From NCBI GenBank assembly GCA_038257245.1, contig JBBSJL010000001.1, positions 23,776 through 87,775 of the forward strand: DNA of 64,000 bases, given 5' to 3'. This document shows positions 29,383-62,521 of the stretch, piece after piece (within the stretch, counting starts at the first letter, position 1; each line of letters opens with the position of its first letter). A program made the position numbers and the translations under genes. Source of the DNA: Candidatus Saccharimonadales bacterium. Lineage in GTDB: Bacteria; Patescibacteriota; Saccharimonadia; Saccharimonadales; JACQNP01. Under the pieces are notes generated by a model. It did no database searches. It was not told where the DNA came from and saw only the letters and a program-made list of their open reading frames with translations.

Positions 29383-29421
29383 GCCGGACTACTATCTAGG
29401 ATTGCATGATAGTAGTCCGGC
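29383..29421 (+). other. perfect 14-bp hairpin between rsmH and ftsL
   Basis: GCCGGACTACTATC (29383-96) / GATAGTAGTCCGGC (29408-21) with an 11-nt loop. No U-tract follows on either strand. Confidence 0.5.
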
Positions 29422-29459
29422 ACCAAAAATAATTTAAACAAAAACAAACATTAAAAAAC

Positions 29460-29807
29460 ATGACATATTCAAATTCATTATCAGTAAATCGGCAACGTCT
29501 TGTAGGAAAAAACCAAAATACTACAAAGATTAAAACGAGCGTTCAATCTATTGGCCCAGTAACTAATACGATTATTCTTATTGTGCTGGCATGTCTACTC
29601 GGTTTGCTTTATCTGACTCAGGTAACAAAGACCAATGCCTACAGCTATCAACTTAATAACTTGCGTAAAGAACAAACATCGCTCAATGAGGAGCAGGCGC
29701 AACTAGAAGTTGACTCAGCAAGATTACAAGCTTTAGATCGCGCTAAAAACAGTGAAGTTGCTAAAAACTTTGTATCGTTAGCACCAAGTGCAACTATCCA
29801 AAATTAA
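29460..29807 (+). CDS. ftsL: FtsL-like cell-division protein
   Basis: 115 aa. Single TM helix (IILIVLACLLGLLYL) followed by a coiled coil. Its position between rsmH and ftsI is canonical. Confidence 0.65.
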   Translation: MTYSNSLSVNRQRLVGKNQNTTKIKTSVQSIGPVTNTIILIVLACLLGLLYLTQVTKTNAYSYQLNNLRKEQTSLNEEQAQLEVDSARLQALDRAKNSEVAKNFVSLAPSATIQN

Positions 29808-29824
29808 GGTATAATAATAGTTGC

Positions 29825-31594: not shown

Positions 31595-31616
31595 AGTATA
31601 ATGTGAAAGTAATAAA

Positions 31617-32657: not shown

Positions 32658-32659
32658 AT

Positions 32660-36782: not shown

Positions 36783-37835
36783 TTAAGCTATGGTGTATGT
36801 TGCTTTGGCTGTTCGTTTGAACTGCAGCTTACCTTGTAGATTCAATAGGATAGTCGTTTCTTTAACGTAGCGGCTTTTTAGAACTTCTTTAACGATTTCG
36901 TCTCGGTGCATTGGTTTGCCAGTTTTTTGTAGCACTTCTGTTATGACGTCGGCGACAGTCCCTTTGCTATAACCCCATTCTCTTAGTGCGTATATCCCAC
37001 GGCCGATAAGAACAAATCGTTTATCTTTGATAAGTTCGTTGTGAATTGCTTGTGTAGTTACATCTTTGCGTTTAAATTCAGAATCTTTAATGGCAGCAGC
37101 AATTTCGTTGAAGTGCATGTACTTACCATTTTCGCTAAGTATTACGTAGATCTTATCTCGAATATTCTTAGGGTTAACTAGCGGCCATTTGATAAGCCCC
37201 CAACGATCGTTAAGGGTAGCTAGTTTTTTAGAAGTAGATGCAAGTGCCCGAGTATTAGAAACATCCTTAAGTCCAGCCGCTTCAGATACTTCTCCAATAG
37301 AAGCTGGTTTAGCGAGTTTCTTAATTGCGTCGATTACCTTAATTACGTTTGCCTTAATTTTCTTTTCATCGTTAATCTTCTTTACGCCCACAGAAAGGTA
37401 GAAATTATCGTTCTCGTCAATTACTGCAATTTCTGGGCAAAGTGCTGACAGGAATGAGACTTTAGAATAATCTGTCTTCACTGCGGTTTTTATAATGACT
37501 GCAGTTAGATCAGTAATTCTGGATACGCCACCCAGTGTAGCTATGTGGTCTGTAAGAGTTTTTTGTACATCATTGATATGAGGAAGTTTCCCCTGCTCTG
37601 CTTGGGCTCGCATTCGAGTTAATATGGCTTTCTCAAGCTGTCGTACACGTTCCCTAGTGATACCCAGTAATTCACCAATTTGTTCGAGTGTTTCTCGTCT
37701 GTCGTATAAACCAAAACGACGTGAAATAATTTCTCGCTCACGTTCTCTATCAATTGACCCCAACACGTCTTTAATAATACCGTCTAGATTTAATTGATTT
37801 GTCGCTACTTCAGCCATATTGTTCCTTTTCCTCAT
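36783..37835 (-). CDS. sigma-70 region-4 HTH + tandem HARE-HTH domain protein
   Basis: The N-terminal segment ETLEQIGELLGITRERVRQLEKAIL is sigma region 4.2-like. Two C-terminal HARE-HTH-like units (YMHFNEIAAAI...RFVLIGRGIYALREWGY; GKPMHRDEIVKEVL...). No region 2 was seen. A likelier start is ATG 37817, after AGGAAAAGGA. Confidence 0.7.
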   Translation of the reverse strand: MRKRNNMAEVATNQLNLDGIIKDVLGSIDREREREIISRRFGLYDRRETLEQIGELLGITRERVRQLEKAILTRMRAQAEQGKLPHINDVQKTLTDHIATLGGVSRITDLTAVIIKTAVKTDYSKVSFLSALCPEIAVIDENDNFYLSVGVKKINDEKKIKANVIKVIDAIKKLAKPASIGEVSEAAGLKDVSNTRALASTSKKLATLNDRWGLIKWPLVNPKNIRDKIYVILSENGKYMHFNEIAAAIKDSEFKRKDVTTQAIHNELIKDKRFVLIGRGIYALREWGYSKGTVADVITEVLQKTGKPMHRDEIVKEVLKSRYVKETTILLNLQGKLQFKRTAKATYTIA

Positions 37836-45402: not shown

Positions 45403-46686
45403 CTACAAAGCGATATTATTGGGGCTATTTGGGTCGCTTGATTCGGGAGCCTCAGCGACTGGTGTTTCGGTTGCTGCTGGCTGTTCAGTCGGAGCAGTAG
45501 CAGTTGCGGCGTTGCCATTTATTGTTCCGTCTTCAGAAATATTGATATTTGCAGCTTCAGTTTCTGGGGCGCTTGGTTGTGGAAGATCTACAGCAGGGCC
45601 ACTGTTGGCTTGAGCATTTTTAAGTTCCTCTTGTTGTAATAAGGCATTCAGGTCCGGTCCGGTTGAGTTGAGGTCGTTTATAGGGGTTATTACTTTCTTT
45701 GACGCAGCTGGTGAGTTTTGGTTAGCTACAGGGTTTGGTGCAGGAGTTTCTGGTGTAGTGTCCGTTGTGGTAGGTGTGTGTTCAGGAGCAATGGCTTGGG
45801 GCTGAGCTCCAGTTTCTGTAGCTGGTTTATCGAGTAAATCGTTAACTGCATCAGCTAGTTTTGCAGCATTGTCGGCTGCAGCTGTCGTTGCATCTTGTGG
45901 TTCTTCAGCTACTGCAATCTCTTCTACAGGATCAGGGTTAGTTTCGGGCTCTGGTGGTGACGCTACAGGAGTAGGTGTTGGCTTGGGCTCTTCTGCTGGC
46001 TCAGTTGTCTTGGCGTTCTCTACAAAATTATTTATTTGGTCTTCAATTTTTTTCCCCTGATCTTGACTCGATTCACTCAATTGTTGTTCGTCAGGTTGAT
46101 CGTCGTTAGTTACTGGGTCTGTAGCTGGGGGCTGGGCTGGCTCAGATACAGGAGCAGGCATAGCGGTTACTGATGGGGTGTCTTGTTGATCGGTATCGGT
46201 ACTATCTGAGTTATCGGTTGCAGTCGTGTTAGACTCATCTACCACGGGCTGTGGCATAGGGTCTGGGCTGGCGGCAGGTACAGGATCTGGGCTACCAGTC
46301 TGGGCAGCCGGTGCTGCTTCACCAGAAAGAACTTCCCGGGCAACTGCTGCCACATCTTCAAGTGTAACTTGGGATTTGACCAAGTATCGGTCGGCACCAA
46401 GTTTATCAGCGCGCTCTTTATCTTCGGCCTGTGACAAAGCTGTCATCATAATTATTTTGGTATTCTTGGTTTCTGGGGTTGTGCGAAGAATATCTAGCAT
46501 ATCAAAACCGCTTATCTTAGGCATCATTACATCAGAGATAATAAGATCTGGTTTTTCCTTTACTGCTAATGCTAGCGCCTCTTCACCGTCTTTTGCCGAT
46601 ACAATTTCATAACCTTCTGCGATTAAACGTGCTTCGTAAATTTCTCGTAGATTGTTGTCGTCTTCGACTAACATTATTTTTGACAT
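45403..46686 (-). CDS. response regulator: receiver domain + ~300-aa acidic P/T/A/E-rich low-complexity tail
   Basis: The receiver (VEDDNN, DLIISDVMMP, MMTA, RYLVKS) is ~60 % identical by eye to 7131-7514. The remainder is low-complexity (PDPVPAASPDPMPQP..., TPTPVASPPEPETNPDP...). No output domain recognised. Confidence 0.8.
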   Translation of the reverse strand: MSKIMLVEDDNNLREIYEARLIAEGYEIVSAKDGEEALALAVKEKPDLIISDVMMPKISGFDMLDILRTTPETKNTKIIMMTALSQAEDKERADKLGADRYLVKSQVTLEDVAAVAREVLSGEAAPAAQTGSPDPVPAASPDPMPQPVVDESNTTATDNSDSTDTDQQDTPSVTAMPAPVSEPAQPPATDPVTNDDQPDEQQLSESSQDQGKKIEDQINNFVENAKTTEPAEEPKPTPTPVASPPEPETNPDPVEEIAVAEEPQDATTAAADNAAKLADAVNDLLDKPATETGAQPQAIAPEHTPTTTDTTPETPAPNPVANQNSPAASKKVITPINDLNSTGPDLNALLQQEELKNAQANSGPAVDLPQPSAPETEAANINISEDGTINGNAATATAPTEQPAATETPVAEAPESSDPNSPNNIAL

Positions 46687-46766: not shown

Positions 46767-48497
46767 TTATACATTTAGTTGCGGGTTTGCTGCTTCGGCT
46801 GTTTGCAGCTCCTTAGCCTGTAGTGAACTAATTCTAGGTAGATTGATATAGAATGTGCTTCCCTTGTCGACCTCACTATCCACCCAGATTCTTCCGCCAT
46901 AGATTTGTACGATTTTTTGGCAAATAAATAATCCAAGTCCAGTTCCTCCAACGGTTCGTGTGCTAGAATTATCGACTCGATAAAACTTTTGGAATAGGTG
47001 TGGGACGTCCTCTTTTGGAATGCCTGGGCCAGTGTCACGAATGTAGAACTGTATGACATCGGGGTTTCCAGTTAAGCCGATCGATATCTTGCCATTCTCG
47101 GTGTACTTCACGGCGTTATCGAACAAATTAGTAATAACTTCACGTAATCTATCGGGATCGGCGTAGGTATAGTAAAGCGGTGTAATTACTTTCTTGCCAG
47201 CACTCGCGTCGTTAGATTTGTTGCTTGTACCGATAGTAAACTCGACCAATAGGCCTTTCTTTTCGGCAGTAAACCTAAGCGAGTCAGCGACCTGCTCAAG
47301 GAATACTCCCATATCAATTGCTGCCGGGTGGCTAACTAATCGGCCGTCTTCTGCTTTGGCGCTAGTAAGCAAGTCCTGAAATAATTGCCCTAAGTGTTGT
47401 GTGCTGGAGTGGGCCTTTTCTAGATAACTCCTAGCCTTGACGTCGATATTGCTAACCTTATCATTCAGGGCAAGGGCTAAGTAACCTTCGATGGCTGCTA
47501 CTGGTGTACGCATTTCGTGGCTTGCTGTACTAATAAAATCAGCTCGGCGTTGTTCTTCGGCTTTCGCATTGCTAACATCGCGGATAACTGCAACCGTTCC
47601 AGCAAGTTCATTAGATTTATCAATAATGACTGGAGACACAACAAACGAAACGACGTGAGTTTTTTTGTCTCTGGCAGCAAGATTGTAGGTATTGCTCGTG
47701 GCTTGCCTATGAGCGATTACCATCGAGAAAGGATTAATATTACTAGGTATGTCTTCATCAAGTTCGTTTTTTATATTAACCACGTTATGGACGTTTATCC
47801 CAAGTGCTTCTTCTACGGGCCAGCCTGTTAGAACTGCGGCAGTTGAGTTCATGTTGTTAATATTGCCATCAGTATCGGTCACAATAACACCGTCGGCTAT
47901 AGACTGAATGAGGATCTCGGATTGTAGTTGTTTGTTTTTTAACGCCCCCGACAGTTTAGAAATTTGGGCGTTGGTTTTTAGGTCATAATAACGACGAAAA
48001 ACGAGGTAGCTAAGTATGCCTATGAGATAAGATCCGAAAAGACCTAGCATACTGAGAGTGCTTACTTCAAAAACACCTTCAGAGGAAGTTGACGACAAAA
48101 TAAAGTAAAGCGAAATCACAAAACACATACCGGTGATGGCGTATGTACCAAAAAGGCCACTAAACAAAGCTAGAGCAAGCCAAGAAATCATATAGATTGA
48201 GCTAAATTCGCCAGTCGTGTGTACGAGGCTGAGGATAGTCAAACATTGTAGGAGATAAAGTATTAGGGTTGCCTGCCAGGCATTTGCATGTGCAACCTCT
48301 CTCTTGTATATAAATACAATGTAAACTAGTTGCATTAGTGCAAAGCCGAGGGTCATGTAGGTTAGGGCTGATTCCTGGCTGTCTAAAATGTATTGGGGGG
48401 CAAACTGATTAACTGAGCTCACCAATGCAAGTGCAGCCGCTAAAACTAACGAAACGCGACTATACAAAAGATACCACCGGTCAGAAACAGATTGCAT
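46767..48497 (-). CDS. sensor histidine kinase (multi-TM N-terminus, PAS, HisKA, HATPase_c)
   Basis: 576 aa. ~6 N-terminal TM helices, PAS-like segment (IADGVIVTDTDGNI), H-box STASHEMRTPVAAI, N box NLFDNAVKYT, G boxes DTGPGI / GTGLGL. Confidence 0.9.
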   Translation of the reverse strand: MQSVSDRWYLLYSRVSLVLAAALALVSSVNQFAPQYILDSQESALTYMTLGFALMQLVYIVFIYKREVAHANAWQATLILYLLQCLTILSLVHTTGEFSSIYMISWLALALFSGLFGTYAITGMCFVISLYFILSSTSSEGVFEVSTLSMLGLFGSYLIGILSYLVFRRYYDLKTNAQISKLSGALKNKQLQSEILIQSIADGVIVTDTDGNINNMNSTAAVLTGWPVEEALGINVHNVVNIKNELDEDIPSNINPFSMVIAHRQATSNTYNLAARDKKTHVVSFVVSPVIIDKSNELAGTVAVIRDVSNAKAEEQRRADFISTASHEMRTPVAAIEGYLALALNDKVSNIDVKARSYLEKAHSSTQHLGQLFQDLLTSAKAEDGRLVSHPAAIDMGVFLEQVADSLRFTAEKKGLLVEFTIGTSNKSNDASAGKKVITPLYYTYADPDRLREVITNLFDNAVKYTENGKISIGLTGNPDVIQFYIRDTGPGIPKEDVPHLFQKFYRVDNSSTRTVGGTGLGLFICQKIVQIYGGRIWVDSEVDKGSTFYINLPRISSLQAKELQTAEAANPQLNV

Positions 48498-48700: not shown

Positions 48701-49891
48701 TTAGGCTGCTTTTAATACTTTACCGGGGGTTCGAACAGCTTTGCTGACTATGCTTATGCCTGGTCCTCGGGTGACTTTACCGATTCGTTTTGCGGATATT
48801 CCCTGTTTGGCTGCTTCGTCTTTTAGTCTCTCGCCGTCACTCCCGTCGATTGCTAATATATATCCTTGCCCACCGTGCCATGTGGTGTATGATTCTTCAT
48901 CGCTCATTGGACGAAGAGTTCCGTCTGGGTTTTCTACTTCAGTTATTTCTTGCGCATGCTGTAAAATATCTGGAACTTCGAAGGGGTCGTAAATATGCGC
49001 GCCAAGTTGAGTCGCTTCGAGCATTCTGCCCAGCTTCTCCCAAATTGAGCCACCTGAAACATGTGCAACGCCGTGAATATCAACTTTTTCTTTTACCTCA
49101 ATCTTGTAACCACCAGTCAGAGTTGTCATAAGACCGGAGTAAATAGTGGAAGGAGTGACAGCGAGTTCGCCAAGTGTAGTATCTTTGAACTTCTCAGTTT
49201 CCCACCGGTTTCCGTAGACTTTTTCAAACGTCTTACGTATTCGCGAAATACCATTACATCTTGCACTTATAGGTTCAGCAAATCCCCAAAGCTCATCGTT
49301 TTCCTGGACACGCTCTCCGGTAATCATTCGGTCTTGGTGTACTAAGCCAACCGCATCACCAATCCAGTCCACAGAGAAATCTCTTCTTCCCTGTAGTCTA
49401 GCTCCATGAACAGCGATTTCGCCAGTAAACAATACCGCTTTTGCATCATTTGCGCCTTCAGCAAGACCTTGGAAAAGTTGGTCAATGTAATGCAGATAGT
49501 CATCGCCAGGTTCGCCCAAAGTACTCACGATGAGAGCGTTATTGATAAACACGGTCTGCCCGCCCTCAACCGGGTTGTCGTCTGCCGCCATTGCAACCAA
49601 ATCTTTACCTAGCCCAAAAAAGTTACCGTTTCCTTCATAAAAGTCGGGTTTCGTGCCTGTTCCATCAATACCTGACGTCCCGTAAACATCTGGACGGTTT
49701 CTTATTTCGTCAAAATTTAGATACTTTGATGCAGAAAAGCGAGTGTCAAATGAAATTGGTTCGCCGAATTCACCTGCCCTGTTTGCCCAAGTTGTTTGAC
49801 ACCAGTCCGCGGCTATTTGTGAGGCTGCATTACTTAAACCTAAGTCAACTCCAGCCTGTCTGTAGGCTTCCATTCTGTCTAACTCTGCCAT
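48701..49891 (-). CDS. purM: AIR synthase (PurM)-family protein, divergent and extended (396 aa)
   Basis: Collinear with E. coli PurM: YRQAGVDL, GIDGTGTK, DLVAMAADD, GLAEGA...TGEIA, HVSGGSIWEKL. Confidence 0.75.
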   Translation of the reverse strand: MAELDRMEAYRQAGVDLGLSNAASQIAADWCQTTWANRAGEFGEPISFDTRFSASKYLNFDEIRNRPDVYGTSGIDGTGTKPDFYEGNGNFFGLGKDLVAMAADDNPVEGGQTVFINNALIVSTLGEPGDDYLHYIDQLFQGLAEGANDAKAVLFTGEIAVHGARLQGRRDFSVDWIGDAVGLVHQDRMITGERVQENDELWGFAEPISARCNGISRIRKTFEKVYGNRWETEKFKDTTLGELAVTPSTIYSGLMTTLTGGYKIEVKEKVDIHGVAHVSGGSIWEKLGRMLEATQLGAHIYDPFEVPDILQHAQEITEVENPDGTLRPMSDEESYTTWHGGQGYILAIDGSDGERLKDEAAKQGISAKRIGKVTRGPGISIVSKAVRTPGKVLKAA

Positions 49892-50697
49892 TACATCTCC
49901 TTTGCGTAGTTAACCGCACCTTGAATTATTTTCGCTGCAAAATCCTCTGCAAATATAGTCTCAGGACGACGCCAGTTTGGATGATGCTCGCGTCGAGTAA
50001 AGCGTTCGTCGTGGGGCATCATCCCAAAAACAATCTCATTCGGACTGCAAGTCCCTGCGATGCCAAGTGGCGAACCGTTCGGGTTATCAGGATGTTCTTC
50101 GGTAGGGTTGCCGTTGCTGTCACAGTAGCGTAGAACTACCTGCTTGCTCAGAACTAGTTCGGCGTAATCGTTCGGATCACGGGCTACTATACGACCTTCA
50201 GCATGGGCTACCGGAAGCTCGATGATACGACCAACATCTTCCTTTGGAATAAAAGGACAAACCGTATCTTCAACACGTGCCTTAACCCAGCGACACTCAA
50301 ATTTCATATTCGCATTACGATCAAGTGTAAATGTAGGCTTGTCATCAGGATCAATGCGCCCATGTTGCAAAAGACCAGATTCGAGAAGGATTTGGTTACC
50401 ATTACAGTTACCTAATACTGGTTTTCTAGCTTCAACAAAAGCGTTTAGCTGATCGGCAACAATGGATGTTCTCATATCGCTGGCGGCTATCGCACCGGCA
50501 CGAATGATATCACCGTAGCTGAACCCGCCGGGCACGAACAGACCTTGCAAGTTATCAATCCTAACTTCGCCACTCTTTACGTCGGCAATGTGAACGAATT
50601 GTGCTGCTGCTCCTGCCTGGTTTAGCGTATCGAAAGTTTCCGCCTCACAGTTGATTCCTGGGAATAGTAGGACTCCAAATTCTGGACTTCTGCTCAT
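49891..50697 (-). CDS. purQ: FGAM synthase glutaminase subunit (PurQ)
   Basis: FGVLLFPGINCEAET, VPGGFSYGD, catalytic Cys context LGNCNGNQIL, C-terminal HPNW. ATG 50697 overlaps the purL TGA (ATGA). The stop overlaps the purM ATG. Confidence 0.8.
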   Translation of the reverse strand: MSRSPEFGVLLFPGINCEAETFDTLNQAGAAAQFVHIADVKSGEVRIDNLQGLFVPGGFSYGDIIRAGAIAASDMRTSIVADQLNAFVEARKPVLGNCNGNQILLESGLLQHGRIDPDDKPTFTLDRNANMKFECRWVKARVEDTVCPFIPKEDVGRIIELPVAHAEGRIVARDPNDYAELVLSKQVVLRYCDSNGNPTEEHPDNPNGSPLGIAGTCSPNEIVFGMMPHDERFTRREHHPNWRRPETIFAEDFAAKIIQGAVNYAKEM

Positions 50698-53540
50698 GCT
50701 AGGGCCTCTTGATTTGTTGCTTTCCACACTTGTTTTAGTTCATCGACCGAGTCACTGAACAGTTGCCCTGTGCCTTCCTGTTCAATGTACAGGAACTTGT
50801 CTGGTTGAGTCGTACCAATGACTTGGTGAGGTATATTACCGAGGAGCTCTGCAATATGCGCATCTGCAGGAACTTCGATCACAAGCGCAGGCGTCTCGTT
50901 AAAGAGTACTCGCTCTAGTGGTGAATTGCCGTCGAAGTTTAGCGTAGCACCGCAGTCACCCCCGAACAGCATTTTACTAACGGTGGTTGCTAGTCCGCCC
51001 TTGCCAACAACACCACACGATAGTACGTGTTGTGGCCGAATAACTTCGTGCATATGGGTATAAAATTCCATATCGCTCATGCCATGATCAGCTCTGGGTA
51101 CTTTAGCACTGGAACCGTCGTAAATATCGTACAGAATTGAACCGCCCATTGCATCAAGGTCCTGTTGCCCCACTAATACAAGTGTAGAATCAGTGCGCTT
51201 TATATCAGTGCTCGTGGTTTCTTTGATATCGTTAGTAAACGTAACACCGCCTAGGCCGAGGTAATAAGGGTTCTTGATCACATTGCCTTTTTCATCAGTG
51301 TGTTCGCCAGAACAGCTATCCTTGCCTGTAAACGGTGCAGTTCCCATGCCGTCCAATTTATCTAGAAGAGTATCAACCGAAAGAAGTAATGTTCCCATAA
51401 CTTGTTCATTTGGGCGCGGTGAGATGTAGTTGTTGTTACCTTTTACTTGCCTTGGGTCGCCACCAACAGCCACGATGCGTCCGAACAAGTCATCGACCAC
51501 CCACTCAGTTCCACGGATAGGATCTAGATCTGTTAGTGCCGGATGAGCACTTTGCGCAAATACTATTCCACCGTCTTGACCCAGTATAGGTGCCAGCACT
51601 GTCGCATAGTTTGGACTATCCATGTGGATACCAGTGAACGGCTTCAGTACATTCATGCCTTGTACTTCATGATCGAACTGGCGAATAGCCGGTTCTGTTG
51701 AAGAAATATCATCATGAGCTAGCACTCGTCGCAACGCATCAACATAGTTGCTGACTTCAATCGAACGCTCCTCAACTTCAGGAGGTACATAGTTGGCTAC
51801 ATACTCTAATGGAGGCAGCGCGTTTTTGATAAAATCGTATTCCCAATCAGAAACAACATCGTCTCCTGATGTGATTGTATAGCGAGGACAATCGCCGCCG
51901 TTTCCAAATACACCAATTGCAGTAGCTTCAGAATCGTGTTTTGCAAATATGGCTATCACAGCCTCAACATGCTCAGGTGCAACGGCTAGTACAGCACGTT
52001 CCTGAGATTCACTTATGATTTTATAATCAACCTCAAAATCAGCTGCCTTGAGCGGCAACTTATCTGCGTCCCAAATAACACCTATCTCATTACCGAGTTC
52101 GCCTGCGGCTAATCCAACACCACCTGCTCCACAATCTGTTCCTGCCCGAATGTAGCCCAGTCGGGAAGCTTCTAAGACAGCGTCTATCATCTTCTCTTCT
52201 TCATATGCCCCCGGTTTTTGGACCTCGCTGGTGTCAGCAAGAGTCTCTGTGTTCGATGCGGCGGAAGACCCTGTCGCTCCACCGACACCATCCATGCCAG
52301 TACGTCCTCCAATAACGAACAGCACATCACCTGCTACGGGAGATTCCTCTGTTGATCTTCCGACTTCACCGAGCCCTATAGAAATACCCTTGAACATAGG
52401 TTTAGCTGAGTAGCCTTGATGGTGATGTACTGCAATATCAACCGTTCCAACACCAATGCGATTACCATACTTACTAACTGCACTTACGGCGCGCCGAAAT
52501 ATTTGTAGTGGCGTTTGTAGTCCTCGAGGTAGCTGTTCTTTTTTGAGCTCGAGTGCGCCGATACCTAAACTAACGACAGTTGCAATGGGCTTGAAACCCT
52601 TTCCGGTCATTAGAATGTCACGGATCAGACCACCAACACCAGTAGCAACACCGCCCTCCGCTTCGATCAATGTTGGATGGTTATGAGTCTCACCCTTAAT
52701 ATTAACGGCAAGCTGTTTCCCGTCTTTATAGAACGGTGTTCGAAATACTGCAGAGTTGCCATCAAATGCCTGTTCAACTCCCTGCTGTTCGTAGTGTTTC
52801 TTTGCTCGATCCTTAATCCTGCCAAACAACGAACGAGCCTTCTCTCCATTCACAATTAGATCAGCACCAAATGTTTCATGCCGGCAATGATCACTCCAGA
52901 ACGGACCCATTAGGCGTAGACCAGCCTCGGGGCTTATTCCGCCAGTTTTATGGCTTTCACGCTGGAGGGCTTGCATCTTTACGAGAGACAGACCGTATTT
53001 TCTAGAATCTGACAGCTGCATTAGCTCGTTATCAGTCATCATACTAAGATTGATTTGCTCGGTTGGTTTTGCTCTGGACTCTGGAGTCAAGCTACGAGGA
53101 GCTTGCTCACGAACTTCTTGGATTTCCTTATTAACAAGCTGCTCTTTCACTACTCGACCTATTGATTCAATCGGTGTGTCTGGACTAAATCGTACTTCAG
53201 TTCCGAGTGCTAAATTGGTAACAGGTATTCCTAGTCGTTTTGCAGCTGTTCGAATGGGCTCAATGTCAGAGTTGATCATTCCTTCGCGGTCAGTGATTTC
53301 TACCCTAAGAGGATCGTCCCAGTCTTCACGAGGCCCAACTACTACTTGTTGTGTTACTGGATTTGCCAGTAATCTCTCCCCGAGCTGCAAAGCCTGATCT
53401 TCGCTAATGCCCTCGGCATAGTAGACGTCTGCAGTTGCAGGTGCAGCGACTGTACAGATTTCTGCTGCTTCACGTGCAATTTGTTGACCCCTAACATCGT
53501 CACCGATGTTTTCAACCCGAATCTCAAGAATATCAGCCAT
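50694..53540 (-). CDS. purL: FGAM synthase synthetase subunit (PurL) with two N-terminal PurS-like repeats
   Basis: 948 aa. The PurL core starts around aa 175 (WSDHCRHETF, two PurM-like ATP-grasp halves with GGLIRD / DCGAGG). The first ~170 aa carry two PurS-like units (..ERLLANPVTQQ; ..EQLVNKEIQE). Confidence 0.8.
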   Translation of the reverse strand: MADILEIRVENIGDDVRGQQIAREAAEICTVAAPATADVYYAEGISEDQALQLGERLLANPVTQQVVVGPREDWDDPLRVEITDREGMINSDIEPIRTAAKRLGIPVTNLALGTEVRFSPDTPIESIGRVVKEQLVNKEIQEVREQAPRSLTPESRAKPTEQINLSMMTDNELMQLSDSRKYGLSLVKMQALQRESHKTGGISPEAGLRLMGPFWSDHCRHETFGADLIVNGEKARSLFGRIKDRAKKHYEQQGVEQAFDGNSAVFRTPFYKDGKQLAVNIKGETHNHPTLIEAEGGVATGVGGLIRDILMTGKGFKPIATVVSLGIGALELKKEQLPRGLQTPLQIFRRAVSAVSKYGNRIGVGTVDIAVHHHQGYSAKPMFKGISIGLGEVGRSTEESPVAGDVLFVIGGRTGMDGVGGATGSSAASNTETLADTSEVQKPGAYEEEKMIDAVLEASRLGYIRAGTDCGAGGVGLAAGELGNEIGVIWDADKLPLKAADFEVDYKIISESQERAVLAVAPEHVEAVIAIFAKHDSEATAIGVFGNGGDCPRYTITSGDDVVSDWEYDFIKNALPPLEYVANYVPPEVEERSIEVSNYVDALRRVLAHDDISSTEPAIRQFDHEVQGMNVLKPFTGIHMDSPNYATVLAPILGQDGGIVFAQSAHPALTDLDPIRGTEWVVDDLFGRIVAVGGDPRQVKGNNNYISPRPNEQVMGTLLLSVDTLLDKLDGMGTAPFTGKDSCSGEHTDEKGNVIKNPYYLGLGGVTFTNDIKETTSTDIKRTDSTLVLVGQQDLDAMGGSILYDIYDGSSAKVPRADHGMSDMEFYTHMHEVIRPQHVLSCGVVGKGGLATTVSKMLFGGDCGATLNFDGNSPLERVLFNETPALVIEVPADAHIAELLGNIPHQVIGTTQPDKFLYIEQEGTGQLFSDSVDELKQVWKATNQEALA

Positions 53541-54234
53541 TTACTTCCCCTAATGCTTTATGTATCCAGGTTGGTACCCAAAGTTTCTCCACTCGCATTA
53601 CTTCATTTTTTAATTTATTAACTGTACCGAATTGTTCCCATTCCTGTTGCATTTCTGGAGATACTGTTACTGGTTGATGCCCAATCGAGGCGCCTGTATC
53701 GTATGCGGGTAAGCCATTTTTATCTAATCTCGTATCCATCCAGTGGAACGTGGGGCCGGAATGTTCAAGACCTAGCTGCATAACCTGTTCTTGTACACCA
53801 GTACCGTGAAAGCCCTGAGTTTCTGGTAATGGCCCAGGATGGGTGTTAGCTATCGGGACTTCTTCTAACACTTTCCCGATTATTTTTTTCATAAAGCCCA
53901 ATGCTACAAATATGCTAACGCCATACTCATCTGCAAGTTGGACTAATTTTTCACTTGCTTCGTAGCTAATGGTTCCCTCTACTTCATTTCCATCAATTTC
54001 TGGCAGAGTACAGGCCTTCTCTGTTTTGTTAGATATGTGATGTATTGGTATATCTAGTCTGTCTGCTCTCTCCCATACTCCTGCATTTGAGCTGTTTGGA
54101 CCATTGTTGCATGCGACGAAGGCTATTGTTGTATTTGGTAGCTCGTTTGCACCTATAGCGTCTTGGACTGCCTCGAAGGTACTGCCCCCTCCTGATGCTA
54201 ATACGCCAATTCTAAATTCTGGATTATCGGTCAC
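53533..54234 (-). CDS. purN: GAR transformylase (PurN)-like formyltransferase
   Basis: GTG start after GAGGT. IGVLASGGGSTFEAV, catalytic N/H in IANTHPGPLP, Asp in MDTRLDKNG. ~40-aa C-terminal extension. Confidence 0.7.
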   Translation of the reverse strand: MTDNPEFRIGVLASGGGSTFEAVQDAIGANELPNTTIAFVACNNGPNSSNAGVWERADRLDIPIHHISNKTEKACTLPEIDGNEVEGTISYEASEKLVQLADEYGVSIFVALGFMKKIIGKVLEEVPIANTHPGPLPETQGFHGTGVQEQVMQLGLEHSGPTFHWMDTRLDKNGLPAYDTGASIGHQPVTVSPEMQQEWEQFGTVNKLKNEVMRVEKLWVPTWIHKALGEVNG

Positions 54235-56826: not shown

Positions 56827-58368
56827 TTATCTCCGGTAAAGTGAGTGATTTTTTATCCAACCGTGTGCGGTTCGGGTTACTTCCGTATTATTGCTGTTTT
56901 TAGCTTCATCGGCAAGTTGGGAGTAAGGTTTAAGAGTGAAAGCAAAAGTACTACCCTCGTTTTCTTTAGACTTGGCCCAAATTTGCCCGCCATGTGCGTC
57001 AACTATTGACTTGCATAAGAACAATCCCAGCCCAGTTCCGCCGACTTCTGTCTTGGTACGATGATTTCGGTAGAATTTATCGAATAGATACGGTAAAACG
57101 TTGTTCGGTATTCCTAGGCCGAAATCCTGCACAGACGTTTCAACCATACCGTTATCATCGATCTTTGTACTAACCAGTATCCTCTTGCCATTTGGACTGT
57201 ATTTGATGGCGTTTTCGATAAGGTTATTAATAACCTCGAACATACTAGTTCGATCCACGGCAACAGACGGTAGCCCCTCGGGAATACTATATTCAATTGC
57301 AATACCATGGGCTCTAGCTCGCATATCAGGATCTTCACAGGCATTTTTTAGGGTAGCTGCCCAGTCTTCTTCGTGAAGCTCCATATACATTTGGTTTGCT
57401 TCTATTCTGGATACATTGAGTATGTTGGTTACGAATGCATTAAGTTGACTTGCTGATGCTTCCATTTTGGCCATAAAGCTCTTTAATTCGTCGTCCAGCT
57501 TGTCATTTAGCTCATCTTGGAATATTTCGATATAGCCTCGTAGCATCGTCAGTGGGGTTCTTAGTTCGTGGACGGCTAGTGCTACAAAACTCATGGCCTC
57601 ATCATCTTGATTATATTGAACCGTTCTATCAAATAATGTGACTATAAATTCGGTACCGCTAGGGTTATCTCGGTTGTAATAGGCAGCAATGTCACACTGT
57701 TTAACAGCTTTTTCCTCAGGTAATCTTAGTCGGACTCTCTCCCAGTAGGCCGTATCTGTAACTTTATTATTCTGGCATTCCACTAGCCATTTTTCTAGCG
57801 TGTGCTCACTGGGGAATTCGAGGTTAACACTTTCATATAATGGTTTTCCAAACAGTTTAGAACTTTCCATTTTGCAGTACGCTAAAGCACTATCACTGGC
57901 ATTCGTCACAATCTGCGTGCTGTTAAATACAAATAATGGCAACGGCAAATGACTAACAATATTTGCAGATTGAACGACTGCTTTTCTGTGGTCGGTCAGA
58001 TCCGAATCTTTATTTGGTTGCTGACTAGCATACTGATAGACCTGCATGACAAGCGAAGTCACTAGCTCCCTTCCTAGCTTTACTTCATCAAGATTTGGTG
58101 CCTGGATATTGGAATTTTCGGGAGAAACATGGATAATGCCTTGCCACACGTATTGAAGAGGCTTGAGTGCATAGTTCGTGAATTTTACACCCAATAAACC
58201 GGCCATTAACATTGCTAGAACAAGCAGACCGGTAACGGACAAGATTAATGGCAAATCCAGAAAATCCAATAACACCCATGCTGCCAGCACCAATATAGCG
58301 TTCGATAGAATAAGAAAAACGACTAGGTTATTAGTGATTTGCTTCTTTAATCGTTGAAAATTATCCAC
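56827..58368 (-). CDS. sensor histidine kinase
   Basis: 513 aa. Two N-terminal TM helices, PAS-like middle, H-box LAVHELRTPLTML, N box NLIENAIKYS, G boxes DFGLGI / GTGLGL. Confidence 0.9.
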   Translation of the reverse strand: MDNFQRLKKQITNNLVVFLILSNAILVLAAWVLLDFLDLPLILSVTGLLVLAMLMAGLLGVKFTNYALKPLQYVWQGIIHVSPENSNIQAPNLDEVKLGRELVTSLVMQVYQYASQQPNKDSDLTDHRKAVVQSANIVSHLPLPLFVFNSTQIVTNASDSALAYCKMESSKLFGKPLYESVNLEFPSEHTLEKWLVECQNNKVTDTAYWERVRLRLPEEKAVKQCDIAAYYNRDNPSGTEFIVTLFDRTVQYNQDDEAMSFVALAVHELRTPLTMLRGYIEIFQDELNDKLDDELKSFMAKMEASASQLNAFVTNILNVSRIEANQMYMELHEEDWAATLKNACEDPDMRARAHGIAIEYSIPEGLPSVAVDRTSMFEVINNLIENAIKYSPNGKRILVSTKIDDNGMVETSVQDFGLGIPNNVLPYLFDKFYRNHRTKTEVGGTGLGLFLCKSIVDAHGGQIWAKSKENEGSTFAFTLKPYSQLADEAKNSNNTEVTRTAHGWIKNHSLYRR

Positions 58369-58379
58369 CCATATTCTCC

Positions 58380-59678
58380 CTAAGGCGTAAAGCCAACTGA
58401 CCCATCTAGTTCAACCGCGCTGATCCAAGTATTGCCTCTATTTAGAGGGATCACAGCTTCATTAGCTGCTTTAAATATCATAGGGCTTTTGCGGTCTTTT
58501 TTCTCCCATTTGCCAACTGTGACTGTGCCATCTTGAAAAATAAAGGCCTTCCCACTTCCACTGGTGCCGTAGATTGTATGCACACCATCGGGGTGAATAC
58601 TCTTTGGCATGATTGCGGCAATAACTACTTTTGGCGTAATTTGTTGTCCGGTTTTTTCATCTACATGGGGTTTGCCCGCTTGGCTGCGCACATATGAGTT
58701 GGTCGTTACATCATAGTCGTAGTGTGGGTTATATAAAAAACTAGATATGTTGAAATCAATCGTTTTGGCATTCGGTGTTGCTATTGGAGAGTCGTCTTTG
58801 CGCCCCCAGCCAGTAAAAGTGCTAGTACTCCAATCTTTAGAGTTTTGTAACTCCAATAGTTTGGCACGGCTCGTATAAACATTATGAGGTGCATAACGGT
58901 TACTAACTCGCTGATAGTAGTTACTGTTAAACCCATAGTCTAGGTCTTTTAAACCTTCGTTTCGAATTTGTGCTAATGCTTCAGCGCTTCCCCCAACATG
59001 GGCTACCGGGGCGTCAAAAGGCACTAACCAATCAAGGTAATATGGCCGTACGCTTCTAATTGGTCCAATATATTCAGGCTGAGATTCTTGAAATAAAGTC
59101 AGGAACCGCGTAATACCACCTTCTGCTACGGCTTCGTATACCACCCCAGCGTCTTTTAACCCTGCTTGTGGCCTAGCATCTGGGCTGTTTTCTATCATTA
59201 CTGCTGTTACTGGCAGAGCTGATTCGGATTCAGTAACCTTTGCCCCTGTTAGATTTGAATTAAATACTTTAGGTTTAGGGGGTACTACAACTTCTACAAC
59301 TTCCACCGATTCCACGGGCTTAGGTTTATGTGTTAGCTTCCAAACAAGAAGACTTACACCGATTAGTACTAACGCCGATACGATACCTATTATGATCCAT
59401 TGTTTTTTGGATAAATCAGGCAGCCTGAATCTACCCTTGCCCTTTTTACTGTGTTTACCTTTGGGTTCAAAGTCTATTTTTTTGGGAGTTGGTGTCTTTA
59501 TCGGTTCCGGATTAGGAGCAGTTGCTTCGTTGGAAAATTGGCTAACAGAGTAGGATTTATCAACGTCTTCAGGGGGCCGAAAGTCAGGTTCTGCTATGTC
59601 GTTACTCTCTGTTTGTTCTAGGTCATCTCTAGAGCCATCCGGATTATTTGACCCCGGGGCAGCAAAATCATCAATCAT
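58380..59678 (-). CDS. membrane-anchored DUF3048-family protein
   Basis: 432 aa. Acidic/basic N-terminus, one TM helix, then MIENSPDARPQAGLKDAGVVYEAVAEGGITRFLTLF, typical of DUF3048 (YerB-like). Confidence 0.7.
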   Translation of the reverse strand: MIDDFAAPGSNNPDGSRDDLEQTESNDIAEPDFRPPEDVDKSYSVSQFSNEATAPNPEPIKTPTPKKIDFEPKGKHSKKGKGRFRLPDLSKKQWIIIGIVSALVLIGVSLLVWKLTHKPKPVESVEVVEVVVPPKPKVFNSNLTGAKVTESESALPVTAVMIENSPDARPQAGLKDAGVVYEAVAEGGITRFLTLFQESQPEYIGPIRSVRPYYLDWLVPFDAPVAHVGGSAEALAQIRNEGLKDLDYGFNSNYYQRVSNRYAPHNVYTSRAKLLELQNSKDWSTSTFTGWGRKDDSPIATPNAKTIDFNISSFLYNPHYDYDVTTNSYVRSQAGKPHVDEKTGQQITPKVVIAAIMPKSIHPDGVHTIYGTSGSGKAFIFQDGTVTVGKWEKKDRKSPMIFKAANEAVIPLNRGNTWISAVELDGSVGFTP

Positions 59679-59782
59679 AAAGTTAATTATATCAATGCTT
59701 ATGCTATATGACTAGATTAAAATAATAATGACATTTGTGTGATATCATTATTTAAATAATCGAATAAGTCGTTGGAGAAATT

Positions 59783-61093
59783 GTGATCCCTAGTGCCTCT
59801 ACAGAATATAGTGATTCCATCGTTAAGTACCATCAATATAAACACGAACTTGGAATTACAAATACCGAAGCAAAATCACATCCGGATACGCAAGAAGTAT
59901 TTTTCGAATTAATCGGAGTTGTCGAAGAATATCCTGAATTGATTTTGGCATATACTGGGGTACAAAGATGTAGGGGCAATAATAGGCGTGAAGCGATAGA
60001 AAACGTAAGAGAAATTGAGGATACAATCCTAGACTTATCATTAGACGTTGGGATAATTTCTAGTTTAGAACACTCAAAAAGAAGTATGTCATTGGATGAT
60101 AACGGAATCAAAGATATATCTAAACAGTTCGTTAAGTTGTTTAAGGATATTATCCCACCAGAATTACTGCCCAAAAAACCAGCAAAGAGGAAAAGGATAA
60201 AAAATAATCAAATTGCAAGTTCAATTGAAGCTGTTGATGAGGATATGGATGTCGTGCTGATCGATGGCAATAAGTTAATTTTCAATAATATTGAAGACGT
60301 CGATCCAACAGATACTCAAACAGAGCTACCTACCCCCACAAATGGCATCAAAAACCCATTTGACTATAATACGGATAGTGCGGCGAATAGCCTAGCTGTT
60401 CAAGTTAGAAATCTGGATACTGCCGAAAAGGCTTTGGCTGGCTATATAGTGTTTGGACGCTTGACGGCTGGAATCAACTTAACGGTTTATTCACTTCAAA
60501 GGGTCATGAGAACATTAGTTGGTACGGATGAAATGCTCACAGTGCGTGGGGCAACCAAGAGATTTGAGATGTGTAATGATTTTATTCTGGGCAAACACGG
60601 CAAAGGTACTACTATTGCAAGGTCGAGTAATAGAGACCAGATTTTAAGTGATATTGGGCCTTCGTTCTCGCATCCTCAAGCGGCCTGCAGTACTGGCAGA
60701 AATGATAACGATATAGCGGCAAGACTAGAATGGTGGTTCCCTGGTAGGGGTGAATCAACTAGCTTACAGAAAATTAAGTGTTTCGGTTGTTCCGCCATAG
60801 ACGCATGTCTTGAATTTTCAATTGCCCATCCTCAGAAGTTTGGTATTTGGGGGGGTGCAAGCGAAAGAGAGCGCCGAGCGCTTAGAGGCACAATGAAAAA
60901 AAGTGGGCGCGCTAGTTTCGAGAGTAGGGTCGTTACTTATAGGAAAAGATCGGCCGAGAGACTTATGTCATTTATTGAAGTACATGCAGATGAAGAAGAC
61001 AAACCAGACCTAGAGTTTAATTTGTTAAGATTTCTCGACCCAGACTATAGGTATAAATTTGATACTTTAGATAAATTCGTAACAACGGAATAA
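59783..61093 (+). CDS. 436-aa protein with C-terminal WhiB-like (Wbl) Fe-S cluster domain
   Basis: GTG start after GGAGA. The C-terminal AACSTG-x-WWFPGRGE-x-KCFGCSAIDACLEFSIAHPQKFGIWGGASERERRAL gives a C-x30-C-x2-C-x5-C pattern plus G[IV]WGG and a basic tail. The N-terminal ~300 aa are unassigned. Confidence 0.75.
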   Translation: MIPSASTEYSDSIVKYHQYKHELGITNTEAKSHPDTQEVFFELIGVVEEYPELILAYTGVQRCRGNNRREAIENVREIEDTILDLSLDVGIISSLEHSKRSMSLDDNGIKDISKQFVKLFKDIIPPELLPKKPAKRKRIKNNQIASSIEAVDEDMDVVLIDGNKLIFNNIEDVDPTDTQTELPTPTNGIKNPFDYNTDSAANSLAVQVRNLDTAEKALAGYIVFGRLTAGINLTVYSLQRVMRTLVGTDEMLTVRGATKRFEMCNDFILGKHGKGTTIARSSNRDQILSDIGPSFSHPQAACSTGRNDNDIAARLEWWFPGRGESTSLQKIKCFGCSAIDACLEFSIAHPQKFGIWGGASERERRALRGTMKKSGRASFESRVVTYRKRSAERLMSFIEVHADEEDKPDLEFNLLRFLDPDYRYKFDTLDKFVTTE

Positions 61094-61096
61094 ATA

Positions 61097-62521
61097 CTAT
61101 CGGAGAGCCTCGATGGAATTATTTATGCGATTTAGGGTTAAGTCTTTTCCCAGTATGTTTAGGGATTCTGCAAGAGCGGGGCTTGATTGTGCCCAGGTTG
61201 TCGCAACTCTAATTAGACTAAACAATACAGCAGGTTTCTGATTGGACTTTTCTAATAGTCCATTTAGTTTCTCATTAAGGTCTTTTATGCTAAAATCGCT
61301 CTCGGCTAAAGCGGCAAGAGTTTGCTCCAACAAATTAACCAATTCTTGTTTATCAAGCTTCTTAAGTTGTTTGTGAGACGAAATAAGGTCTAGGTTCACA
61401 GGCAAGTCTTCAAAGAAAAAATTTGTGAGCTCGGGTATCTCGGATAGAAATTTTAATCTTTCTTGGATTTGTCCCAGAACTTGTTGTTTGTATGGTTCAG
61501 GGGCATCAGAGGCACTTTTTGGCCAGTAATCTGCTGTTAGAGTATAAAGCTCGTCGGTGTCCATTGCTCGTATAAATGAACCATTAACCCACCTAAGTCG
61601 TTGTTCGTCGAATCTGGCACCACTTTTCTGTACACGGTCCAGGCTAAATTTTTTGACAAGTTCATCTCTACTAAACACTTCTTGTTCTGTGCCATCATTC
61701 CAGCCGAGTGTGGCTATAAAACTTACCAGTGCCTCTGGCAGGTAGCCGTCACGTATGTAGTCTAGTACATCTTTGGCACCGTCGCGTTTACCAAGTTTCT
61801 TGTTACCTTCGGCGCCAAGAATATGAGGAACAGTTGCCATTATTGGCGGCTTAATCTCCAGTGCCTCATATAGATTTAAATAATTTGGTACGCTCGATAT
61901 AAATTCTTGACCGCGAATAATATGAGTTATTGCCATTTCATGGTCATCTACTATATGTGCAAAGTTGTATGTGGGATAGCCATCAGTTTTTATAAGAATA
62001 AAATCATCGATTACTTCCGGGCCTGTAGATAAGTCACCCATGACCTCGTCGTGCCATTTATGAACTTTTGGATCAGATTTAAATCGTAGTGGTTGAGTGC
62101 CATCCCATTTTGGAGGCTTGTCCGGACGGTGGTTTCTGTATAGAAATGGTAACTTATTTTTTTGTGCTTGTTCGCGGAACAATTGCACCTCTTGGGTCGA
62201 GTAAGGGTCGGCGTAAGCGCGACCATCTTCTATGAGTTTGTTTGCCCATTTTTTGTATATATCTAGCCGGTCGCTTTGTTTGTACGGCCCAAAATCGCCA
62301 CCAACGTCTGGACCTTCGTCGTACTTCAGACCCAGAATATTCAGGCTGTCTATTAAGTGTTGAGCCGAACCCTCAACCTCACGGTTTTTGTCGGTGTCTT
62401 CTAATCGTAATACGAATATGCCTTTAGTCTGCTTGGCAACTAGCCACGCAAACAAAGCTGTGCGGATACCGCCAACATGTAAATAGCCAGTAGGGCTTGG
62501 GGCAAATCGAGTTCTAATCAT
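61097..62521 (-). CDS. gltX: glutamate--tRNA ligase
   Basis: 474 aa. RFAPSPTGYLHVGGIRTA (HIGH region) and KLGKRDG (KMSKS-like). Confidence 0.95.
   Translation of the reverse strand: MIRTRFAPSPTGYLHVGGIRTALFAWLVAKQTKGIFVLRLEDTDKNREVEGSAQHLIDSLNILGLKYDEGPDVGGDFGPYKQSDRLDIYKKWANKLIEDGRAYADPYSTQEVQLFREQAQKNKLPFLYRNHRPDKPPKWDGTQPLRFKSDPKVHKWHDEVMGDLSTGPEVIDDFILIKTDGYPTYNFAHIVDDHEMAITHIIRGQEFISSVPNYLNLYEALEIKPPIMATVPHILGAEGNKKLGKRDGAKDVLDYIRDGYLPEALVSFIATLGWNDGTEQEVFSRDELVKKFSLDRVQKSGARFDEQRLRWVNGSFIRAMDTDELYTLTADYWPKSASDAPEPYKQQVLGQIQERLKFLSEIPELTNFFFEDLPVNLDLISSHKQLKKLDKQELVNLLEQTLAALAESDFSIKDLNEKLNGLLEKSNQKPAVLFSLIRVATTWAQSSPALAESLNILGKDLTLNRINNSIEALR

Follow-up and report, generated by a model that had tools for sequence, protein, structure and literature searches.

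The literature still confines Wbl proteins to Actinobacteria and actinophages (PMC6282962; PMC13013590, Feb 2026), and the sequence-only reading of this DNA had noted the same restriction. The locus described here raises the question of whether a complete WhiB domain has a native place in a Saccharibacteria chromosome and, if so, what it does there. The Feb 2026 structural and phylogenetic survey of the family left out proteins larger than 250 aa (PMC13013590), and no paper linking WhiB to Saccharibacteria or Patescibacteria proteins was found in the literature searched. The gene lies within a 64,000-nucleotide window (the whole stretch of DNA that was analysed), and its features are listed below by window position.

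58380-59678, minus strand: DUF3048 gene, divergent neighbour of the WhiB-type gene
59724-59752, no strand assigned: inverted repeat AATAATGA-n13-TCATTATT in the 104-nt divergent spacer
59774-59777, plus strand: Shine-Dalgarno-like GGAG spaced 5 nt from the GTG start codon, seen directly in the sequence
59783-61093, plus strand: WhiB-type gene, 436 aa, GTG start, stop codon at 61091-61093; order of parts N-domain, linker, mid-domain, WhiB domain, tail
59783-60187, plus strand: N-domain, aa 1-135, predicted bundle of seven helices; YHQYK and HPDT motifs conserved
60170-60202, plus strand: basic patch PKKPAKRKRIK, aa 130-140, at the end of the N-domain
60209-60382, plus strand: acidic linker, aa 143-200, pI 4.1, predicted disordered (pLDDT 36-50)
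60383-60598, plus strand: mid-domain, aa ~201-272, predicted small helical domain (pLDDT 87-94)
60659-60907, plus strand: WhiB (Wbl) domain, aa 293-375 (Pfam match aa 300-367, 60680-60883)
60686-60688, 60779-60781, 60788-60790 and 60806-60808, plus strand: codons for C302, C333, C336 and C342, respectively
60908-61090, plus strand: C-terminal tail, aa 376-436, predicted helices extending the basic helix (RVVTYRKRSAER), then acidic
61097-62521, minus strand: gltX, convergent neighbour of the WhiB-type gene

The gene is monocistronic, and its N-terminus cannot be longer, given an in-frame TAA at 59765-59767. It has housekeeping neighbours (DUF3048 and gltX), with a histidine kinase also in its flanks, and its GC content (~0.40) equals that of its surroundings. 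TopA from the same contig is 73-77% identical to named Saccharibacteria proteins, which identifies the contig as Saccharibacteria and bears out the earlier impression that the genome does not look actinobacterial. Two further features noted at that stage were also found, namely a dcw cluster lacking mur ligases within the window and a sigma-r4/HARE-HTH protein at 36783-37835 (minus strand). Judged from this sequence context, the WhiB-type gene is a chromosomal Saccharibacteria gene in its native setting.

A WhiB domain could also reach such a contig as recent foreign DNA, either as a prophage or mobile-element gene or within an actinobacterial contaminant that had been mis-binned. Phage-family profiles do match the protein (PHROG WhiB families, E down to 1.6e-13), as do actinophage WhiB genes; however, the matches cover the WhiB core. 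A tblastn search against 50,697 phage records aligned aa 283-391 only, at no more than 54% identity, and the patterns used detected no N-domain in 2.9 million viral contigs. PADLOC returned no match for the window protein, and the related loci all have a GC content of 33-51%. Together with the gene's own GC content, its flanks and the TopA of the same contig, these results essentially refute a recent foreign origin. The suggestion that the gene was acquired from a host or its phages likewise gained no direct support, given the matching GC content and phage matches restricted to the WhiB core. In a neighbour-joining tree of the domain, the window domain fell within an 8-tip clade together with P0014, P0020, P0021 and P0028, joined by P0035 in a wider 15-tip clade; it clustered with low-GC multi-domain proteins and not with any particular actinobacterial or phage Wbl. 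Any transfer of the WhiB domain would be old.

The palindrome upstream of the gene had been proposed as an operator situated ~10 nt before the start. The repeat does exist and has no second copy in the window, but its true position is 59724-59752 rather than 59744-59772, which puts it ~30 nt before the GTG. A possible extended -10 element (TGaTATCAT, 59740-59748, read by eye) overlaps the right arm of the repeat, a promoter scan reported no plus-strand promoter at the palindrome, and no matching palindrome stands out by eye upstream of the relatives L001 and L004. When the 104-nt, 22%-GC spacer was shuffled, 11% of the shuffles contained a perfect 8-bp inverted repeat whose loop was 3-20 nt, and a palindrome of this kind is thus often expected by chance alone. 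With its stated position 20 nt off and its statistics weak, the repeat is at most a putative operator.

Is the domain itself a genuine Wbl domain? A search with the Pfam profile Whib (PF02467), which had been suggested as a check of the assignment, gave 43.9 bits against a cutoff of 23.6 (E 3.6e-11) and covered profile positions 5-65 of 65. The motifs on which the sequence-only reading had relied are all in place: the cysteines are spaced C-x30-C-x2-C-x5-C with all four ligand positions present, WWFPGRGE occupies aa 317-324, the GIWGG turn aa 354-358 and SERERRALRG aa 360-369. The turn is the Gly-rich beta-turn (G[V/I]WGG) expected of the family and is followed by SERERRALRGTMKKSGR, the basic helix of the domain being SERERRALRGTMKK. 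The protein does not, however, end there as had been claimed, since a 61-aa helical tail (aa 376-436), which is not conserved among relatives, follows the domain. An 8-residue insertion after Cys1 lengthens the Cys1-Cys2 spacer to x30, compared with x22 in 109 of 133 related domains, although a subgroup with 30-32 residues exists.

The predicted model has the Wbl fold, with four helices around a cluster pocket, and Foldseek matched it to Wbl structures with TM scores of 0.65-0.72 and a probability of 1.0. It superposes at 2.0-2.5 Å on Wbl structures bound to sigma-A region 4. The closest sequence relatives in the PDB are Streptomyces venezuelae WhiB (8dy7_H/8dy9_H, E 1e-10), then WhiB3, WhiB1, WhiB4 and WhiB7. 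Sequence and predicted fold together indicate that this is a complete, well-preserved Wbl-family domain. The whole protein departs from the usual description of the family in two ways. It is a multi-domain protein of 436 aa, whereas Wbl proteins are single domains of ~75-130 aa, and it is encoded on a Saccharibacteria contig of ~40% GC, outside Actinobacteria and actinobacteriophages, the latter being a statement about distribution and not a structural criterion.

The ~300 aa preceding the WhiB domain had been left unassigned. This description stands insofar as the N-domain and mid-domain have no known relatives, but the region is not uniform and resolves into the N-domain, a basic patch with a disordered linker, and the mid-domain; the protein contains three folded regions plus the tail. 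The N-domain has no relative in Pfam, NCBIfam or the PDB and no known fold relative. A profile built from its alignment (A1) scored the window ORF at 175.9 bits (E 1.1e-53) and detected no second copy elsewhere in the window. The features that define the N-domain family (~135 helical residues with YHQY[KR] and HPDT motifs, then a basic stretch) are all present, the basic stretch occurring at the same position in most members. According to the predicted model, it is a confident, all-helical, lineage-specific and previously undescribed domain. The mid-domain, with the consensus L..F[IV]L.G...[IV][RK]..L[RK].LAG..EL.D..V..R[YF]..LN (alignment A4), has no PDB sequence relative and no fold match. 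Wherever this WhiB subtype occurs, whether alone, fused to a helicase or fused to the N-domain, the mid-domain is present beside it; this domain, too, was previously undescribed.

The fusion of a WhiB domain to a long non-Wbl N-terminal region, as first read from the sequence, is genuine, because homologues with the same architecture exist (P0002, P0005, P0006, P0008, P0010 and L004). The closest of them across the whole protein is only 31-36% identical, and the N-domain was found in only ~25 clusters among 1.84 billion representatives; a family this rare and patchy is not a core regulator. On other low-GC contigs the N-domain heads RpoD/SigA-like sigma factors (P0012 and P0070 join it to Sigma70_r2/r4) as well as proteins with unassigned C-termini, and in P0007 it is combined with an XPB-like helicase and WhiB. 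The mid-domain and WhiB domain form a unit that is found alone or fused to XPB-like helicases, and in L016 this unit directly follows a Sigma70_r4_2 protein. The GC content of the related contigs, and the title of one of them (L005) as Saccharibacteria, suggest that they are Saccharibacteria-like. A 'GRGRTY' motif linking the gene upstream of the L008 helicase-WhiB protein to the N-domain proteins was dropped (BLASTP E 0.95).

We propose, with a probability of roughly 60%, that the window protein is a multi-domain Wbl-type Fe-S transcription factor which, by docking on sigma region 4, brings its N-domain to RNA polymerase. According to the model, the WhiB domain would assemble a [4Fe-4S] cluster, and its docking surface would be the aromatic patch near the cluster, which would bind region 4 of the primary sigma factor of the same cell within the RNA polymerase holoenzyme. 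DNA upstream of the -35 element would be contacted by the basic helix (aa 360-390), perhaps together with the basic patch (aa 130-140), and the flexible linker would let the N-domain work at the same holoenzyme; some relatives build the N-domain directly into sigma. As with actinobacterial Wbl proteins, the protein would come off sigma when the cluster is lost through O2, NO or iron limitation.

The aromatic patch used for sigma-A-4 binding, AP1-AP4, consists in WhiB1 of W3, F17, F18 and W60, and F17/F18 and W60 are reported to be necessary for binding (PMC13013590). Alignments to Wbl relatives place AP2/AP3 at W318/F319 and AP4 at W356 in the window domain, matching WhiB1 F17/F18 and W60. At least two aromatic residues, one of them from AP2-3, define the patch in the published survey, and flanking aromatics count in its relaxed form (PMC13013590); the window domain carries such a patch. 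Counting against sigma docking, S296, which is not aromatic, occupies the strict AP1 site (-6 from Cys1), with F295 and H297 flanking it at -1/+1, and the insertion after Cys1 points the same way. So do the sigma-region-4 proteins at hand: the only one in the window (36783-37835) has A-Q at the position of the H-P contact pair (H516-P517), through which Wbl proteins bind region 4 of the primary sigma factor, and the N-domain sigma factor P0070 has N-E. No rpoD was present in the window or in the fetched relative loci.

The altered AP1, the insertion in helix 1 and the absence of the H-P pair from these sigma-region-4 proteins would also suit a protein that never docks on RNA polymerase, namely a sigma-independent redox or NO sensor or a thiol-disulfide protein. 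Here, the state of the Fe-S cluster or of the cysteines, all four of which are conserved, would control ligand binding, DNA binding or oligomerisation by the N- or mid-domain. However, all solved complexes have a sigma interface formed by AP2-AP4 and the GIWGG turn, and these elements are intact in the window domain; the model also superposes closely on the sigma-bound structures. Moreover, the partner domains are all linked to transcription or DNA (sigma factors, the XPB-like helicase and the neighbouring sigma70_r4_2 protein). We consider such a sensor unlikely.

Cultivated Saccharibacteria live on Actinobacteria, and this organism is a Saccharibacterium; the sigma factor in question might then be that of the host, with the protein delivered into the host cell, its WhiB domain binding sigma-A region 4 there and reprogramming host transcription. 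Binding of Wbl proteins to sigma-A-4 is documented for actinobacterial sigma factors only (PMC13013590). The family is also patchy and fast-evolving, as effectors often are. Nevertheless, the N-terminal sequence contains no signal peptide or recognisable secretion motif, and the fusions of the N-domain to sigma factors and of the mid-WhiB unit to helicases point to use inside the producer. Furthermore, the H-P pair of group-1 sigma factors is not known to be restricted to Actinobacteria, and we regard a host-directed role as highly improbable.

Sigma docking within the producing cell could be part of a more general arrangement, which we offer tentatively and as possible rather than probable: in Saccharibacteria the mid-WhiB unit may be a portable, Fe-S-gated adaptor on sigma region 4 that tethers exchangeable cargo to the holoenzyme of RNA polymerase. 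The N-domain, which elsewhere is built directly into RpoD-like sigma factors, would be one such cargo; another would be an XPB/Rad25-like translocase, a bacterial analogue of TFIIH-type promoter DNA handling. Were this true, Wbl proteins would be no actinobacterial peculiarity but a modular device for RNA polymerase recruitment that Actinobacteria have in common with their Saccharibacteria epibionts, either since ancient times or through transfer.

Because Wbl proteins are called exclusive to Actinobacteria and actinophages and proteins above 250 aa were left out of the survey, an intact Saccharibacteria Wbl domain widens both the known host range and the known architecture of the family. The window protein belongs to a small set built from shared parts (N-domain, mid-domain, XPB-like helicase and N-domain-sigma fusions), and it contains two domains that are confidently predicted to fold, lack known relatives and have fusion partners pointing to transcription. 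A testable question follows, namely whether a Saccharibacteria Wbl domain binds its own sigma region 4, that of the host, or neither.

Among its relatives, the window protein shares the mid-WhiB unit with the helicase-mid-WhiB proteins (P0004, P0014, P0020, P0021, P0028 and P0035), which carry an SF2 XPB/Rad25-like ATPase in place of its N-domain and linker. P0014, P0020, P0021 and P0028 have an x32 long-spacer insertion comparable to the long spacer of the window domain, and three of these four share with it an F at -7 from Cys1. Among characterised systems, the WhiB/WhiB2 subclass (S. venezuelae WhiB, PDB 8DY7/8DY9) has FFP.[KR]G.ST, C-x2-C-x5-C, FGIWGG and SERERR in common with the window domain. 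It differs in lacking the 8-residue insertion after Cys1 and in having Trp rather than Ser at AP1; S. venezuelae WhiB is moreover a single-domain protein of 87 aa from an actinobacterium and acts together with WhiA, whereas the window domain is aa 293-375 of a 436-aa Saccharibacteria protein. The WhiB7/WblC subclass likewise combines a Wbl core with an extra C-terminal basic element, although the window protein, whose DNA contact is putative, has no AT-hook (RGRP), and among the nine sequence matches in the PDB, WhiB7 ranks with the weakest (E 0.4-0.6). WblP provides a precedent both for a Wbl domain that shares a protein with other domains and for Wbl and sigma modules being physically linked (PMC6282962). 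In WblP, which is actinobacterial, the partner is the sigma factor itself, whereas the WhiB domain described here is joined to an undescribed N-domain and mid-domain, and its link to sigma is indirect, through the same N-domain that is fused to sigma in other genomes.

An open reading frame with a GTG start encodes the 436-aa window protein. We read a GGAG 5 nt before the start codon, and an in-frame TAA lies five codons ahead of it.

59783-61093, forward strand, gene of the window protein

The product contains a single Pfam domain, Whib (PF02467; aa 300-367; E 3.6e-11), which scored 43.9 bits (gathering score 23.6) and bears out the domain call of the sequence-only reading. WhiB-annotated PHROG families matched the same region (best E 1.6e-13), while no NCBIfam model matched the protein. 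The four cysteines (C302, C333, C336 and C342) are arranged as C-x30-C-x2-C-x5-C, and WWFPGRGE (317-324), GIWGG (354-358) and SERERRALRG (360-369) are all present, as had been proposed. The protein does not end in the WhiB domain, as first described, but continues for a further 61 aa.

An AlphaFold2 model was built on a 46-sequence alignment. Mean pLDDT was 81.9 and pTM was 0.41, the latter being low because flexible linkers join the domains. The predicted parts are:

aa 1-135, N-domain, seven helices, pLDDT ~97
aa 130-140, basic patch PKKPAKRKRIK
aa 143-200, acidic disordered linker
aa ~201-272, small helical mid-domain, pLDDT 87-94
aa 293-375, WhiB domain, pLDDT mostly >90
aa 376-434, C-terminal helices that extend the basic helix and then become acidic

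Known relatives were found for the WhiB domain only. The closest solved structure by sequence is Streptomyces venezuelae WhiB (8dy7_H/8dy9_H, E 1e-10), followed by WhiB3, WhiB1 and WhiB4, with WhiB7 a weak match. Foldseek gave TM scores of 0.65-0.72 at probability 1.0, and the modelled domain superposes on sigma-bound Wbl conformations. In every sequence and fold property open to testing here, the domain is that of a Wbl protein.

Taken whole, the window protein has almost no relatives. Among 5.8 billion proteins, a word-indexed search returned four matches. HMMER, run in full against 1.84 billion cluster representatives, returned six with E <= 1e-30 and 42 with E <= 1e-10; at E <= 1e-3 there were 4,481, almost all of them short proteins sharing the WhiB core only. 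Sequence comparison indicates that the protein is built of three modules, namely the N-domain, a unit of mid-domain plus WhiB (mid+WhiB), and the WhiB core. The N-domain occurs in ~25 clusters, and the modules were found in the following orders among homologous proteins:

N-domain then mid+WhiB, as in the window protein: P0002, P0005, P0006, P0008, P0010 and locus L004
N-domain then SF2 helicase then mid+WhiB: P0007 (844 aa)
N-domain then RpoD/SigA-like sigma factor: P0012 (380 aa), P0070 (717 aa)
N-domain then C-terminal region without Pfam match: P0003, P0009, P0011, P0013, P0016-18, P0043
mid+WhiB alone (180-225 aa): P0024, P0027, P0037, P0052, P0056
SF2 helicase then mid+WhiB: P0004, P0014, P0020, P0021, P0028, P0035

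Both sigma-factor fusions, P0012 and P0070, matched Sigma70_r2 (E 6.5e-12 and 8.5e-16, respectively), and their best NCBIfam matches were RpoD/SigA/SigB models, every one under its cutoff. In these proteins the N-domain is N-terminal, ahead of the sigma core; group-1 sigma factors carry region 1.1 at their N-terminus, likewise ahead of the sigma core. The nearest solved and curated relatives of the helicase in the helicase-mid-WhiB fusions are XPB/Rad25, and a WhiB-tethered XPB-like translocase appears to be undescribed so far. Such fusions (735-844 aa) were located on fetched contigs of relatives, in one case overlapping the end of a gene whose product matches Sigma70_r4_2 at 28.3 bits (cutoff 25.7):

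L006, 10001-12535, XPB/Rad25-like SF2 helicase-mid-WhiB fusion
L008, 3246-5453, fusion of the same kind
L016, 6001-8454, fusion of the same kind
L016, 4542-6047, overlapping upstream gene with the Sigma70_r4_2 match

At L006 a histidine kinase gene lies directly upstream of the N-domain-helicase-WhiB gene. A DEAD-box RNA helicase gene adjoins the N-domain-WhiB gene at L001 (8663-9865, co-directional) and L004 (4182-5420, divergent), and is absent beside the window gene.

The spacer between the first two cysteines is x22 in 109 of the 133 WhiB domains and x30-32 in the subgroup of the window protein, where a phenylalanine at -7 from the first cysteine is usual, often as F-x-H-P. In a neighbour-joining tree the window domain falls within a clade of eight tips, the others being four helicase fusions and three short proteins; this clade is nested in one of 15 tips, in all of which the mid-domain is present. 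The remaining N-domain fusions carry x22-type WhiB domains and form a separate clade; the N-domain has therefore been combined with both WhiB subtypes.

The window gene shares the GC content of its surroundings (~40% across the window). On one side lie a DUF3048 gene, in divergent orientation, and a gene for a histidine kinase; on the other is convergent gltX, 3 nt past the stop codon of the window gene. Other window genes include a dcw block that, as had been noted, lacks mur ligases:

28394-35941, forward strand, dcw-type block (rsmH, PBP transpeptidase, mraY, ftsW, murG and an unassigned 309-aa open reading frame; no mur ligase genes interspersed)
38004-40322, reverse strand, TopA, 73-77% identical to proteins named at NCBI as Candidatus Saccharibacteria, Candidatus Saccharimonadales or Patescibacteria group bacterium

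The fetched contigs with an N-domain or mid+WhiB protein all have 33-51% GC, one of them (L005) being titled 'uncultured Candidatus Saccharibacteria bacterium', and the relatives' loci are chromosomal in context (polysaccharide genes, purK, tuf/fusA, pgk/tpi). We rejected foreign DNA of recent arrival, and likewise contamination, as the source of the gene, since both its composition and its genomic context speak against it. The Saccharibacteria TopA, the native GC, the neighbouring genes and the single copy in the window of the WhiB domain and of the N-domain together rule out both contamination from a high-GC actinobacterium and a recent phage insertion. Phage genomes matched the protein at aa 283-391 only, with <=54% identity, all of them from phages of Mycobacterium, Gordonia or Tsukamurella; a scan of 2.9 million viral contigs yielded no N-domain. 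The proposed transfer from a host or its phages is unsupported.

Several further genes were observed in the window:

48701-54234, reverse strand, de novo purine block (396-aa purM-like AIRS/AIRS_C, purQ-like GATase_5, 948-aa purL-like AIRS, purN-like Formyl_trans_N)
7131-7514, 15270-15650, 45403-46686, 46767-48497 and 56827-58368, two-component genes
19032-19610, forward strand, NYN-domain protein
19927-21450, forward strand, PIF1-family helicase, of which one also lies near the window protein's homologue in L001
54292-55572, reverse strand, Y-family polymerase with DUF4113

The purine block lies in the sole stretch of the window with a GC of 0.45-0.47, against ~0.40 elsewhere, and may be an acquired island; the lineage is usually described as lacking nucleotide synthesis. 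The two-component set, unusually dense for a small genome, comprises two histidine kinases, of which one has PAS domains, and three receiver-domain proteins, of which one has a Pro/Thr/Glu-rich tail of low complexity, 300 aa long.

A palindrome upstream of the gene had been put forward as its operator, at 59744-59772; its actual position is as follows:

59724-59752, palindrome AATAATGA-n13-TCATTATT, ~30 nt ahead of the start codon
59740-59748, possible extended -10 (TGaTATCAT), read by eye and overlapped by the right arm of the palindrome

Shuffling the 104-nt, 22%-GC spacer gave a perfect 8-bp inverted repeat (loop of 3-20 nt) in 11% of cases, about twenty independent repeats of equal quality occur across the 64-kb window, and no matching repeat was seen in the upstream regions read at L001 and L004. 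The operator role is possible but unsupported. A consensus promoter scan of the spacer reported the divergent DUF3048 promoter and no other.

Each Wbl protein is a [4Fe-4S] monomer whose aromatic patch AP1-4 (W3, F17, F18 and W60 in WhiB1) binds the primary sigma factor at region 4, around H516-P517, at least three patch residues, AP2-3 among them, being critical for binding (PMC13013590). The window protein has W318/F319 at AP2/AP3 and W356 at AP4; its strict AP1 position is S296, flanked by F295 and H297. All four cysteines are intact, as are the turn and basic helix. Together with the overlay of the model, these features suggest that the WhiB domain would hold a [4Fe-4S] cluster and bind the organism's own holoenzyme by docking on sigma region 4, with its basic helix near DNA upstream of the -35 element. 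It is possible that the protein is instead a sigma-independent redox sensor, although the intact sigma-interface residues make this less likely. The N-domain most likely acts at the holoenzyme as well, because it is either built into a sigma factor or fused to WhiB, whose only known activity is sigma binding (a Rosetta-stone argument). Mid+WhiB thus looks like a docking adaptor, with the N-domain or the XPB-like translocase as cargo. An effector aimed at the sigma-A of an actinobacterial host would be attractive and would fit the lifestyle; however, a secretion signal is absent, and the fusions to sigma factors and helicases point to use inside the producer.

No rpoD was present in the window or in any fetched locus. 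The window does encode the sigma-r4/HARE-HTH protein named in the sequence-only reading:

36783-37835, reverse strand, 350-aa protein that matches Sigma70_r4 at its N-terminus (45.1 bits) and HARE-HTH in two stretches (46.1 bits)

In group-1 sigma factors, Wbl proteins contact an H-P pair. In an alignment with a sigma-A sequence, anchored on the RER[IV]RQ motif, the corresponding positions read A-Q in region 4.2 of the sigma-r4/HARE-HTH protein and N-E in P0070, and neither appears an obvious partner.

A 2026 Wbl survey was limited to Actinobacteria and actinophages and to sequences of 75-250 aa (PMC13013590). A full-text literature search found no paper linking WhiB with Saccharibacteria or Patescibacteria proteins, the matches concerning the hosts' own WhiB genes. 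The JGI pipeline labels P0007 'WhiB family redox-sensing transcriptional regulator', so the domain call is within reach of routine annotation. The finding is genuine and its main point holds: a Wbl domain occurs outside Actinobacteria, as part of a small family that is modular, linked to transcription and endowed with two domains not described before. The window protein departs from the usual Wbl-family description, which specifies a small single-domain protein, and from the stated taxonomic restriction. We file it as a Wbl-domain protein of new architecture and do not assign it by orthology to WhiB, WhiB2 or another named subclass.
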